A stretch of 32,000 bases of DNA from Desulfotalea psychrophila LSv54 (GCF_000025945.1 NC_006139.1:30001-62000); one strand, 5' to 3'. Positions 743-6,700 are shown, numbered from the stretch's first letter. The notes: generated by a model not told the origin, from the letters alone. A program made the numbers and translations.

Positions 743-869
743 ACATAACAAGTCAATACAGCGGAAAATCAGGGATTGGTCCTATCGAAATATCTTTGTT
801 AATTTCGAATATGTTATTTCAAGACTGTTCATCCTGCCCCCTGTTTTCCACTGATTTCAAACGTTGCCG
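743..869 (+). repeat. attC-like imperfect palindrome (plus-strand orientation) directly after the DUF1524 gene; its 3' box abuts the IS-derived element
   Basis: It starts ACATAAC (743-749), 4 nt after the stop, and ends GTTGCCG (863-869). The arms AATACAGCGG / CCACTGATT are partly complementary. It is homologous to the minus-strand repeats at 4276-4394, 5310-5439 and 5870-5984 (shared TAACAA..TCAA..CGGAAAAT and CCACT.AT..C..CGTT blocks). Confidence 0.4.
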
Positions 870-1230
870 GGCCTTGTTGCATAAATCATGAGAGAAGGAA
901 ATCAGTTTCTCTCTGCTCCATTCCATATTAGCAAACAACCCCTCGAACAGACATCCCTCTTGTTCAAAGCCTTGATCGCAGCCCTACCTGCTTGAACACT
1001 CCCTGTACTTGGCTACGGTCACGCTGTCCCGATGGTGTCGTGCTGTACCAACTTTCAATCGCTTTCTTGTCCACCCAAAACGTCAACGCCGTTGTTTCAG
1101 CACTCTATTATATTCTGGCCAATTTTTGATCTTTCCCCTGCGCTCTCTCATAACTCTCCCAATGTTTTCTGTGTGTTACAAGAAAACATCATCGAGCAAT
1201 GCTAGCAACTTCTATTTGTGCAACAAGGCC
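870..1230 (-). mobile_element. 361-bp internally deleted (MITE-like) derivative of the IS903-group (IS5 family) element found intact-length at 21416-22450
   Basis: Termini are GGCCTTGTTGCATAAATCATG (870-890) and CTATTTGTGCAACAAGGCC (1212-1230), the same inverted repeats as the 1035-bp copy. About 225 bp of the left end are fused to about 130 bp of the right end, with the junction near 994-1003. The first ~100 nt are almost identical to 21416-21515. The flanks (acgttgccg / actggatat) show no direct repeat. Confidence 0.8.
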
Positions 1231-1239
1231 ACTGGATAT

Positions 1240-1421
1240 CAATCAAAAACGAGTGATAACCGGAAACTGGATATCACTACATGATCCAAATTCCTCACAC
1301 TCTCTCTCATAGATCAATTTATGCCCTTGTACAGAGGGGAGTATCACAAGGGGATCGTGATGCTAATCTGTTGTTCATCCACTTCGCAGATAAGTTTTAT
1401 GTCTGCAACGATTTGTTATGC
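1240..1421 (-). repeat. attC-like repeat variant (longer, carries the shared module 1265-1340)
   Basis: On the minus strand GCATAAC (1421-1415) lies 3 nt after the TAA of the HNH-tail fragment. The 3' half CCGGTTATCACTCGTTTTTGA (about 1262-1242) matches the L'/R' half of the other copies (CCGGTTATCATAAACC..., GTCGGTTATTTGCGAC...). The limits are uncertain. Confidence 0.3.
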
Positions 1422-1424
1422 GTA

Positions 1425-1545
1425 TTACGCACCGGACACCTGAAGCCTGGCAATCTTCGCCCGTAGATTCTTTGCCAGTTCCTTTTTGCCCGTACCATAG
1501 TGCAGTTCGCGGTGACAATTGGGGCAAAGTGCTCACGTATGGTCT
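1425..1545 (-). pseudogene. C-terminal remnant of an HNH/His-Me finger nuclease gene
   Basis: Minus-strand translation is '..CPNCHRELHYGTGKKELAKNLRAKIARLQVSGA*'. The CPNCHR..H pattern is typical of HNH tails. No upstream coding continuation exists in this frame; it is fused to the Fic fragment near 1545. Confidence 0.4.
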
Positions 1546-1738
1546 TGCCACCAACAGTAATACCTTCTAGAGCAACTTTAGTCTCTTTTAAGGTCAGGGT
1601 ATTTCCTTCAATGGCGTTGGAGTTGTAGGTCCAGCGCAGAACAAGATCTTCGTGCAGGTTCGAGACTACCTCGGCAGGCAGAGGGCGATAGGAATCGAGG
1701 GTTTTTTTTTAATAATCCAGTTGTGTATAGTCGCTCAT
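1546..1738 (-). pseudogene. N-terminal remnant of a Fic/DOC family gene, frameshifted in a T9 run and truncated
   Basis: ATG at 1738-1736 gives 'MSDYTQLDY'. After the homopolymer at 1702-1710 another frame reads 'KKKTLDSYRPLPAEVVSNLHEDLVLRWTYNSNAIEGNTLTLKETKVALEGITVGGKTIREHF'. This is the conserved Fic N-terminal 'YNSNAIEGNTLTL.ET' block. Similarity stops near 1546, before the HxFx(D/E)GNGR core. Confidence 0.55.
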
Positions 1739-2285
1739 TGTTTTCTTTGACGTTAAATTATGGCAGTTTTACTGCCTTTACGGCGTTTTAAGTAGATTGC
1801 ATGGTAACAGCAAGCTTGTCTCCCTGGCAATGTTTTTTGAATACAGGCGAGACTTGTTTGTTGCGGGGAGGGTCACTACATAATGGAGGGTAGAATTAGT
1901 ACGAGATTGGCCCCACAAGGTTTTAATTGTCGTTAACTCTCTCTGTATATGTTTTTTAGTGAAAATCTTATTGCGTTCGCTTGAGCTCCGCATTGTCAGT
2001 AAGTCTCATGCTATCCTCCTAGTTCATGCACTTTAAAATTACGTACCAGCCATCACAAGCTGGCTTGCCATCCATATGGGGATCTGATCTGGGCAGTGAC
2101 TCTATCAGCAATAGGATCGGTCAAAAAAATAAGATGCCTTTTTGTACTTGAAATCGTTAGGATTTGTTGATAGTATTGAAGGTATGTTAGGTTTTGCGTA
2201 GGAGGAACGGGTTGACGAAAACACGAAATAACAGTATCTTCCTTGACCTCTGCTTTTTTTTAGCATTCAATATAGAAAGGTTGTT

Positions 2286-5439: not shown

Positions 5440-5733
5440 GTTCCGCAAATGAGTCCAAAAAATTCGAAATGGTGATAGCGACCAAGTATAAATAGAAGAC
5501 GCAATTAGCGAATATAGGGGAATGCTGATTAGAACTATTACACAGTAACTTACCAAGTACGCATACCAACCTGAATTTTTCCACCAAAAATCAGGATTTT
5601 TCGTACTGGCTGGCATCCAACCTTCACCAAGAGAAATTACTATTGATATATGGATTGAATATAATAGTATTAAAAACAACAAAAATGAGACTATACAAAG
5701 AGCCAACTTGAATGATTTTGCAAAAATGGACAT
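5434..5733 (-). CDS. hypothetical small membrane protein (99 aa), cassette ORF
   Basis: ORF with 2-3 hydrophobic helices (LALCIVSFLLFLILLYSIHISIVISL; YAYLVSYCVIVLISIPLYSLIASSI). Its stop is embedded in the attC-like box. Preferred over the overlapping 5363-5587 ORF, which crosses the repeat. Confidence 0.5.
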   Translation of the reverse strand: MSIFAKSFKLALCIVSFLLFLILLYSIHISIVISLGEGWMPASTKNPDFWWKNSGWYAYLVSYCVIVLISIPLYSLIASSIYTWSLSPFRIFWTHLRNR

Positions 5734-5739
5734 GGTAGC

Positions 5740-5853
5740 TTACGAAACACTTTGATCAGTTTCCTTATAAAGGCTCCAACTTACAACCCCTGTAACACCA
5801 AATATGGTCATAATTCCCAAGATGATTGATATTACATTAGCAAAGTTATCCAT
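5740..5853 (-). CDS. possible 37-aa membrane peptide (MDNFANVISIILGIMTIFGVTGVVSWSLYKETDQSVS), first gene of the same cassette
   Basis: Not in the ORF track because it is under 60 aa; translated by hand. AGGAAA lies 7 nt upstream of the ATG (5853-5851). The TAA stop is 6 nt before the ATG of the 99-aa ORF. One clear hydrophobic helix. Confidence 0.3.
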   Translation of the reverse strand: MDNFANVISIILGIMTIFGVTGVVSWSLYKETDQSVS

Positions 5854-5869
5854 ATAATTTTCCTAAGAG

Positions 5870-5984
5870 CGCTAACGGTCGTGATAAGTGGCGGCGACGC
5901 GAAGCTGCGTGACACACCGCAATTTGGTTTTGCTTTTCAATTTAAAGCAGATGTATTTACCGTCCGGTTGATTGCGTTGTTAGG
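5870..5984 (-). repeat. attC-like imperfect palindrome
   Basis: On the minus strand GCCTAAC (5984-5978, a perfect RYYYAAC) contains the TAA stop of ORF 5980-6579. The element ends CCGCCACTTATCACGACC GTTAGCG (5876-5870). Confidence 0.5.
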
Positions 5985-6579
5985 CGTTTTCTTTTTCTTC
6001 TGGTAATGGAACGTCAGTTTCAAGGCCAGAAATTGTTGGTAGTTTTACACATTCAACAAGAGTTACCCCGGCATTTGTTATTTCTTTCCAGTTTTGTTTT
6101 GTTAGCGTAGCGTCTTTTGACTCACTTATTGCTCGATGGTTTCCTGCGCTCATATATGCGGTGCAAAATGCATTTCTTGCCTCTGGTTCTAAATAAAGAC
6201 AGTTGTTACCCCACCATTCTTGACATTCCATAACTACCGCATCAATTTTCTCTTTATTCCAAACATGCAGAATAAGATTTCGCCATAGTGCATAGGCTTC
6301 TTGGTGGGCTTTCAATCTTTTTTCCAGCGCGGCCATTCTTAGTTGCTGCCGCCAACCAGCTTGTTCAAGAATGGCTTTATTTTGGTGTGAAATTTCTTCT
6401 AATTTTTGAAGATACTGAGTACGAACATTTTCAACTTGATGAGTAATTTCTCCAATATCTTCTTTGGTAGCTAAATTTTTTCCTTTTTCCGAAGAATATG
6501 ATTTCAAAAAAAACACGAAGATGATCCCAAGAATTCCAAGAAGCTCAAATATATGAAAAACAATTTCACCTTGTGTCAT
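5980..6579 (-). CDS. hypothetical protein (199 aa; N-terminal TM helix, coiled-coil segment, Cys/Trp-containing C-terminal domain), cassette ORF
   Basis: ATG at 6579 with AAGG 7 nt upstream. 'IVFHIFELLGILGIIFVFFL' is a TM helix, and 'QVENVRTQYLQKLEEISHQNKAILEQAGWRQQLRMAALEKRLKAHQEAYALW' is heptad-like. No family recognised. Confidence 0.55.
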   Translation of the reverse strand: MTQGEIVFHIFELLGILGIIFVFFLKSYSSEKGKNLATKEDIGEITHQVENVRTQYLQKLEEISHQNKAILEQAGWRQQLRMAALEKRLKAHQEAYALWRNLILHVWNKEKIDAVVMECQEWWGNNCLYLEPEARNAFCTAYMSAGNHRAISESKDATLTKQNWKEITNAGVTLVECVKLPTISGLETDVPLPEEKENA

Positions 6580-6603
6580 TGTTGTACCTTTTTAAATTTG
6601 GAT

Positions 6604-6700
6604 GCCTAATAAGTTATTATCCGGTTTCCTGATGTCATTCCAGGTAAACACAATTTGAAAACAATTTTTTTATCCATGGTACAGGTTTTTAACTGGGTAT
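6604..6700 (-). repeat. 3' half of an attC-like repeat; its 5' half is replaced by the shared module 6691-6766
   Basis: The minus strand reads ..AAATTGTTTTCAAATTGTGTTTACCTGGAATGACATCAGGAAACCGGATAATAACTTATTAGGC. It aligns with the 3' halves of the 4276-4394 and 5870-5984 copies. The terminal box reads ATTAGGC (6610-6604). Confidence 0.35.

Follow-up and report, generated by a model that had tools for sequence, protein, structure and literature searches.

What kind of genetic element fills the left 6.7 kb of a 32,000-nucleotide stretch of DNA from Desulfotalea psychrophila LSv54 (GCF_000025945.1 NC_006139.1:30001-62000), in which imperfect palindromes resembling the attC sites of integrons separate open reading frames (ORFs)? 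This stretch is called the window below, at its full length, and positions are counted from its first letter. A preliminary description had listed six related attC-like elements between positions 743 and 6700 and had hesitated between a sedentary chromosomal integron and a cluster of attC sites lacking an integron integrase (CALIN), eroded since by insertion sequences (ISs) and deletions. It now appears, with a probability of about 0.9, that positions 1-6700 are a decayed fragment of an integron cassette array without its own integrase, i.e., a CALIN. According to the IntegronFinder paper, a CALIN is an attC cluster lacking an integron integrase, whose attC sites share a strand and lie no more than 4 kb apart (Cury et al. 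2016, PMC4889954). Three attC sites of the window (starting at 4276, 5310 and 5870) lie on the minus strand within a span of 1.7 kb and the window is free of any integrase gene (intI), so that the locus is a CALIN by this published definition.

The attC sites were searched on both strands of the entire 32 kb, with filters off, using the covariance model R2, a surrogate attC model built from 136 sites of the wider family presented below. Four significant matches were obtained. Two of them belong to a family of long attC sites, 4276-4394 (minus strand; 91.8 bits, E = 6e-23; 94.1 bits with the precursor model R1; nhmmer E = 8e-25) and 5870-5985 (minus strand; 88 bits, E = 7e-22; 85.5 bits with R1; nhmmer E = 2e-26). 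The two others, 5310-5439 (minus strand; 28.3 bits, E = 2.6e-5) and 743-869 (plus strand; 20.1 bits, E = 0.005), are each of their own type. The next-best R2 match of the window, 24955-25067 on the minus strand, overlaps the start of a ShlB-type ORF; it fell from 17.6 to 12.2 bits (E = 0.79) under this broader model and was discarded as a chance match. The boundaries given by R2 coincide with those of the preliminary description for 4276, 5310 and 743, and one end of 5870 is shifted by 1 nt (5985 instead of 5984). All the boxes quoted there were also recovered, both the first ones (GCCTAAC at 5984 to 5978, CGCTAAC at 5439 to 5433, AGCTAAC at 4394 to 4388, GCATAAC at 1421 to 1415 and ACATAAC at 743-749) and the last ones (GTTAGCG at 5876 to 5870, GTTAACT at 5316 to 5310, GTTGCCG at 863-869, TTTATGC at 4282 to 4276 and ATTAGGC at 6610 to 6604). 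Thus, four of the six proposed elements are attC sites, whereas 6604-6700 and 1240-1421 are not recognized as such (see below). Furthermore, the six elements do not form one set of relatives: the last 56 nt of 4276-4394 and 5870-5984 show 80% identity, and these two elements share on the minus strand the core CTAACAAnnnAATCAACCGGACGG, while 5310 and 743 represent two other attC types.

The four sites show the canonical organisation anticipated for them, R''-spacer-L''...L'-spacer-R', with extrahelical bases confined to the '' arm. The 5310 site is fully paired (CGCTAAC | AAGG | CAAAT-C-AAC-T-CG-G-ACTGGC ... GCCAGT-CG-GTT-ATTTG | CGAC | GTTAACT) and can be folded from end to end on both strands. 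The 743 site has the layout ACATAAC | AAGTC | AAT-A-CAGCGG-A-AAAA-T-CAGGG ... CCCTG-TTTT-CCACTG-AT | TTCAAAC | GTTGCCG, with a single C.A mismatch in the L helix, and a metagenome contig carries a clean 68-nt attC with the same L'' module (L056:6069-6136; 35 bits; bottom-strand z = -6.7). Both sites have three bulges, all on the '' arm, and the cores of both have no match in viral contigs. Complete R''/R' boxes are found at 5870 (GCCTAAC/GTTAGCG) as well as at 5310 (CGCTAAC/GTTAACT) and 743 (ACATAAC/GTTGCCG). At 4276, R' reads TTTATGC where GTTAGNN is expected, i.e., the G of the near-invariant GTT is lost, and one pair of the L helix is weakened (CGG/CTG). At 5870, R' is intact and two mismatches lie in the middle of the 6-bp L helix (L' CCACTT versus CCGGTT). 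These mutations of 4276 and 5870 look disabling and are probably inactivating. Judging from the loss of the G of GTT in the one and the weakened L helix of the other, the array could now be largely inert; among the attC sites of the window, only 5310 looks fully competent, 743 carrying its single mismatch.

The family of 4276 and 5870 extends well beyond this locus. A scan for their 21-nt core (21 specified bases), made with one genome per species, found it in 50 stretches of DNA (hereafter loci) from about six phyla, where approximately 0.3 chance matches would be expected by our own estimate. Most of these loci come from Desulfuromonadales; the others belong to Desulfobulbaceae, Desulfospira, Duganella/Pseudoduganella, Gallionella, Sedimenticola, Amphritea, Motiliproteus, Pedobacter, Ca. 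Anammoxibacter, Chlorobiota and Methylomirabilota. The family was found on none of 72,556 catalogued plasmids. Its consensus is CTAAC | AAACT | AAT-C-AACCGG-A-CGG | variable region | CCG-CCGGTT-AT | 7-8 nt | GTTAG, with a spacer of 5 nt on the '' side and of 7-8 nt on the ' side. The unpaired C and A of the top strand correspond to G and T on the bottom strand, which are the canonical extrahelical bases of attC sites such as attC-aadA7 and the Vibrio cholerae repeats (VCRs). Family members exist in two forms, a long one (112-120 nt) with a conserved variable region and a short one (55-88 nt) similar to the textbook 59-base elements.

A covariance model (R1) built from 29 family members with a hand-drawn structure identified 136 sites in the 50 loci, and R2 was built from these 136 sites. 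None of the 31 loci that have at least two sites mixes strands, and the median spacing of sites is 709 bp (interquartile range 509-1100 bp). Pairs were counted on the 136 sites, in an alignment fitted to the model's own structure, which favours pairing: 89% of the cells are paired, versus 23-41% with slid partners, and the L helix reaches 96%. Both sides change in 12 of the 18 pairs (e.g., CG:83 / GC:39; AU:99 / CG:20) and in 7 of the 9 pairs of the L helix, and none of 500 shuffles reached the covariation score. The outer three positions of the R boxes are paired in only about half of the sites, as expected if R' is a hybrid of two cassettes, while the AAC/GTT pairs are kept in 127-130 of 133 family sites. 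As a positive control, R2, which includes no Vibrio sequence, detects six co-oriented VCRs in a fragment of the V. cholerae superintegron (E = 1.7e-6 to 1.8e-3).

Some of these arrays are associated with integron integrases. A tblastn search with IntI1 as the query, in which every match was re-tested, revealed integrases 42-56% identical to IntI1 in eight loci (L041, L046, L034, L005, L032, L002, L009 and L036), a frameshifted integrase in L045 and fragments in L021 and L039. The six integrases that were scored against NCBIfam all match TIGR02249, “integron integrase”, with 374-488 bits for a cutoff of 265. Nine loci have a near-full-length intI, and in each of them all attC sites are 5' of intI and on the opposite strand, the nearest one being 341-1358 bp away, which is the canonical geometry of integrons. 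The sole related locus with a non-canonical integrase geometry is L021, where a C-terminal intI fragment (217-522) is on the same strand as an array of six attC sites; this is apparently another degraded integron. Two other loci, L016 and L028, come from a metagenome-assembled genome (MAG) of Pedobacter sp. (contigs of 1.76 Mb and 118 kb) and carry same-strand arrays with 11 and 6 model hits, respectively. If the assembly is sound, they would place long attC sites of the Desulfuromonadales type in an unexpected host belonging to the Bacteroidota.

The arrangement of the ORFs in the window is that of integron cassettes, each attC directly following an ORF and the boundary lying at the G|TT of R'. 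Three consecutive ORFs of the minus strand (5980-6579, 5434-5733 and 4389-5288) end at the TAA included in GCCTAAC, CGCTAAC and AGCTAAC, respectively, as had been noticed in the preliminary description. This is general in the family: the TAA of R'' closes an ORF of at least 60 codons at 31 of 113 sites, versus 5 and 12 in the two other frames. From the last box to the start of the following ORF there are 15-24 nt (ATG 4260, TTG 5288, ATG 5853 and ATG 6579), in good agreement with the short distance described earlier. Cassette 1 encodes a protein of 199 aa (5980-6579) that is 100% identical to a hypothetical protein of D. psychrophila and has many homologues in Vibrio. Cassette 2 (5434-5853) holds two small ORFs of 37 aa (5740-5853) and 99 aa (5434-5733), and cassettes 3 and 4 encode proteins of 299 aa (4389-5288) and 179 aa (3721-4260) without any family match in the profile searches.

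The boundary of cassette 1 can be seen by comparison with its homologues. After a homologue with 72% identity (L051/L052) comes a short attC overlapping the stop codon of the ORF, and after another one with 44% identity, located in the V. cholerae superintegron, comes a VCR; homologues of this cassette are followed by attC sites of three different forms. When the upstream regions are aligned, the window and L051/L052 become similar precisely from TTAGGC onwards, within GTTAGGC in L051/L052 and ATTAGGC in the window, with no similarity before. This onset of homology at G|TTAGGC indicates that 6604-6610 (minus strand, A|TTAGGC, with A where G is expected) is a true crossover junction of the IntI type, at which cassette 1 begins on its 5' side, although nothing recognisable is left of the upstream partner of this junction.

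These data also bear on the idea that the repeats are palindromes of the repetitive extragenic (REP) or terminator type whose likeness to attC is coincidental. They are indeed imperfect palindromes placed directly after ORFs, as terminators are, and their folding energies are unremarkable. However, no T-tract terminator coincides with them, their bulges are strand-asymmetric, the homology of cassettes breaks at G|TTAGGC and the family is linked to intI in canonical geometry in 9/9 loci. Its spread over about six phyla also contrasts with a local island of low GC content (34-39% in the left 7 kb, which includes the cassette region, versus 52-62% over 7-13 kb). A REP or terminator origin is therefore effectively refuted.

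Read along the minus strand, the ORF of cassette 4 is followed by an rnlA + rnlB toxin-antitoxin pair (2286-3716) recognized by the Pfam profiles RnlA_toxin, RnlA_toxin_N, RnlA-toxin_DBD, HEPN_RnaseLS and RnlB_antitoxin. It is on the plus strand, i.e., opposite to the surrounding cassettes, and has promoter-like sites of its own (2148-2176 and 2212-2240). A frameshift divides rnlA into two parts (2286-2981 / 2962-3351); rnlB (3345-3716) is intact. Then comes a frameshifted pseudogene of an HNH-type nuclease (1375-1745, minus strand; translation motif ...CPNCHRELHYG...), which has several breaks, loses its frame at an A9 tract near 1700 and stops 8 nt before the GCATAAC box. At the left end, the plus-strand cassette carries the 3' part of a GmrSD-type (DUF1524/HNH) restriction gene (41-739; Pfam GmrSD_C, 88 bits; PADLOC matches to HEC-06/Orf5/SspE) that overruns the start of the window and whose stop codon lies 3 nt before attC 743. 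This cargo is tilted towards defence and addiction (GmrSD, RnlAB, HNH nuclease), which fits the current view of integron cassettes as stores of anti-phage systems.

In the first of the two elements that are not recognized as attC sites, 6604-6700, only the last box (ATTAGGC) is real. In 1240-1421, the 20-nt segment 1245-1264 (minus strand), TCCGGTTATCACTCGTTTTTG, is probably the L'-spacer-R' relic of a family attC whose 5' half is missing, since CCGGTTATCACT is identical to the L'-spacer of the family member L022, a post hoc comparison that is not significant with covariance models or nhmmer; this CCGGTTATCAC..GTT relic would be all that remains of the attC of cassette 4. Beyond it, the element is largely one copy of a direct repeat of about 80 nt, D3, whose copy A (1265-1341, plus strand) and copy B (6691-6767, plus strand) share 79% identity (E = 4e-14), their first 32 nt being 94% identical. 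The copies bracket the minus-strand cassette block, each lying where the 5' half of an attC is missing.

From this position, it could be argued that 1240-1421 and 6604-6870 are two copies of a long non-canonical attC (180-250 nt), or of a duplicated cassette tail, in which case all six sites would be real and D3 would be their variable region. An attC is indeed needed at both places: copy A is flanked by an ORF stop with its GCATAAC box on one side and by the relic on the other, and copy B lies just upstream of the A|TTAGGC junction. Moreover, duplicated cassettes are common in large arrays. However, the two elements have no L''/L' complementarity and no end-to-end fold (z = -0.2 to -1.25), they score at most 7 bits with the covariance model even when their own neighbourhood is searched alone, and nhmmer finds neither of them. 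In addition, the significant similarity between the copies spans only about 80 nt and no second example occurs in related loci, metagenomes or plasmids, where D3 itself has no match. Such a long attC is thus clearly unlikely. It is less probable still, although conceivable, that D3 could be the end of a new attC-targeting element, or delimit a composite unit that moved a sedentary-type cassette block onto a mobilizable plasmid; if so, the plasmid would be a vehicle for the integrase-free spread of cassettes between phyla. The end of a group IIC-attC intron was also considered for D3 and rejected by eye, with no GUGYG-type end and no intact attC around.

Within the decayed array proposed here, the opposite orientation of 743-869, already found unusual in the preliminary description, is indeed unusual given the 31 multi-site related loci, and it coincides with a miniature inverted-repeat transposable element (MITE) at 870-1230, so that the locus is not a single intact array. 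The MITE is an internal-deletion derivative of the IS 21417-22451, relative to which it is inverted, with 83-100% identity to both ends of this IS and terminal inverted repeats GGCCTTGTTGCATAAAT. It has no target-site duplication (flanks ACGTTGCCG and ACTGGATAT), whereas its parent IS keeps a 9-bp duplication, GCAGTGCAT; the GmrSD cassette and the minus-strand block were therefore joined by a rearrangement at the MITE. Immediately to its right, the flanking sequence ACTGGATATC (1231-1240) is the same as the first 10 nt of D3 copy A. An inversion between the MITE and its inverted parent as the cause of the opposite orientations is ruled out because the parent IS has its 9-bp duplication intact. 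This parent is a 1035-bp DDE element (IS4/IS5-like) with internal frame breaks, inserted into a gene of the IS256 family (Transposase_mut) in the region 20600-22460. The erosion by ISs and deletions that had been suggested is visible in the MITE, the frameshifted genes, the mutated attC boxes and the lack of any intI relic in 32 kb.

The other claim on which the classification depends, that neither intI nor attI is visible in the window, is borne out. The 32 kb have no similarity to eight IntI proteins even at E <= 50 (tblastn), nor to IntI1 at E <= 1e-3, and neither an intI relic nor an attI was found in 6611-7560 by tblastn or by blastn against related integrons. Thus, an intI next to attI and divergent from the cassettes, as in a complete integron, does not occur within the window. 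The array could nevertheless be the distal end(s) of a complete and active integron whose intI-attI lies just outside, most likely left of the GmrSD cassette, or elsewhere on the replicon, acting in trans. The plus-strand cassette (41-869) points rightwards, so that its integrase is expected left of position 1; attC 5310 and attC 743 look competent; and about half of CALINs occur on a replicon that also has a gene for IntI (Cury et al. 2016, PMC4889954). However, the side where the integrase of the minus-strand block is expected, the right one, has neither intI nor relic over 25 kb, no attI-like or promoter (Pc)-bearing region resembles those of related integrons, mutations at positions near-invariant in the family affect two of the three minus-strand attC sites, and the pseudogenes and the MITE indicate decay. 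A complete integron is therefore rather unlikely, while remaining the least improbable of the alternatives.

Several observations weigh against an integrase-less array fragment. The attC model is home-made and its E-values are rough, and 743-869 reaches only E = 0.005. No attC follows the ORF of cassette 4, the region 1200-4275 containing no R2 match above 9 bits, and every test for attC, attI or intI was negative in 6611-7560, the segment upstream of the first junction. As for the plus-strand cassette, the place expected for its intI is outside the window, left of position 1. Furthermore, the comparison of folding with shuffled controls that had been suggested as a check does not favour the sites of the window: folded as whole elements with single-stranded DNA parameters, they give z = +0.4 to -1.6 (-1.6 for the bottom-strand stem of 743), i.e., no better than shuffles. 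Intact long-form members of the family behave in the same way (z = -0.6 and -1.75), while short forms and one VCR reach -4.3 to -6.7. Since whole-element folding does not discriminate the long form, it was used as evidence neither way.

The replicon on which this CALIN resides also distinguishes between the two possibilities left by the preliminary description. A sedentary chromosomal integron, as defined here, lies on a chromosome and has a large array of tens of cassettes whose attC sites are all highly similar; the window has about 5 cassettes and three different attC types. It also contains a relaxase gene, nikA and a Rep-like gene, and the sole exact match to the product of cassette 1 is in a D. 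psychrophila record of 121,587 bp, which we take to be the size of the large plasmid of strain LSv54. Therefore, a plasmid-borne CALIN is likelier than a sedentary chromosomal integron, and the array probably sits on the mobilizable 121.6-kb plasmid of D. psychrophila LSv54 and not on the chromosome.

The following scheme would account for the locus. Each unit would consist of TTRRRY, one or several ORFs and an attC, and units would have been inserted singly by an integron integrase (IntI), which uses attC in the form of its folded bottom strand and recombines it at the conserved GTT/AAC triplet. In minus-strand order, the array comprises the junction A|TTAGGC (6610-6604), cassette 1, attC 5985-5870, cassette 2, attC 5439-5310, cassette 3, attC 4394-4276 and then cassette 4, presumably made of orf179, the inverted rnlAB pair and the HNH pseudogene, with its attC reduced to the 20-nt relic. 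On the plus strand, the GmrSD cassette ends in attC 743-869. The present layout is the product of a rearrangement, the MITE without target duplication joining the two opposed parts. Any further mobility of the cassettes would probably need IntI supplied in trans. Their expression could depend on read-through or internal promoters, because no Pc/attI lies upstream.

Rfam contains no attC family and scans of the window against it returned, besides one chance match to a long non-coding RNA, only a C4 antisense RNA of the P1/P7 phage type (RF01695; 16573-16652, plus strand; 45.4 bits for a gathering score of 45). It is located directly upstream of an HTH_36/RP-C-like replication-type gene (16708-17688) and beside the relaxase/NikA pair (14056-15410). 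In the high-GC acs/dehydrogenase cluster, the junction of ORFs 9338-10345 and 10342-11367 shows a perfect tandem duplication of the 27-nt unit GGGGGGCGGCATGAGCGAAAAAAGCAT, start codon included (10332-10385). Finally, a locus resembling two-partner secretion systems occupies 23294-31923 on the minus strand; it includes a ShlB/FhaC transporter (23294-25021), a protein with YDG/MBG repeats (25523-27820) and an ORF of 1367 aa in which a 234-nt sequence is tandemly repeated (27843-28310, 93% identity).

The array described here adds one more case, clear but ordinary, to a well-known kind of element and changes no concept: CALINs, long conserved attC families, stop codons in R'' and IS-mediated erosion of arrays are all already established. 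It provides a clean worked example of an integrase-less cassette cluster and indicates that an attC family typical of Desulfuromonadales integrons also reached a replicon of Desulfobulbales with mobilization genes. Like known CALINs, it has three co-oriented attC sites (4276, 5310 and 5870) less than 4 kb apart, with neither intI nor intI pseudogene nearby, a cargo mostly without known function or resistance genes, and an association with ISs (PMC4889954). Unlike a typical CALIN call, this one is based on a surrogate covariance model and not on that of IntegronFinder; moreover, two of its attC sites carry probable inactivating mutations and a solitary opposite attC lies 3.4 kb away, across the MITE.

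Close relatives include the same-family integrons of Malonomonas rubra DSM 5091 (L009/L025), a Desulfuromonas MAG (L002) and a Malonomonas MAG (L041). As in the integrons of Desulfuromonadales, the long attC sites of the window have the identical R''-L'' module CTAACAAnnnAATCAACCGGACGG, a conserved long variable region and a length of about 112-120 nt, the stop codons of ORFs are often inside R'' and the cassettes are compact and co-oriented. The difference lies in the canonical intI of the Desulfuromonadales loci and in their intact attC sites, which score 95-121 bits with R1 versus 85.5 and 94 in the window.

The V. cholerae superintegron is a chromosomal array of well over 100 cassettes with an integrase, and it includes toxin-antitoxin cassettes. 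Its VCRs resemble the sites of the window by their length (120-130 nt), by the same layout of boxes, spacers and bulges (CCT-C-AAG-A-GGG-A-CTG) and by their detection with R2, and the homologue of cassette 1 is there a VCR-bounded cassette. In contrast, the attC sites of the window belong to another sequence family, its cassettes number about 5 and its location is probably a plasmid. In the same way, attC sites of class 1 integrons (e.g., attC-aadA7) have in common with those of the window the RYYYAAC/GTTRRRY boxes, a central spacer that is unpaired and an L helix whose extrahelical bases on the bottom strand are G and T, and the short 55-72-nt forms of the family (L017, L030, L005) look just like them. 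Unlike class 1 integrons, the window contains neither resistance genes nor a class 1-5 context, and its copies of the family attC are of the long form.

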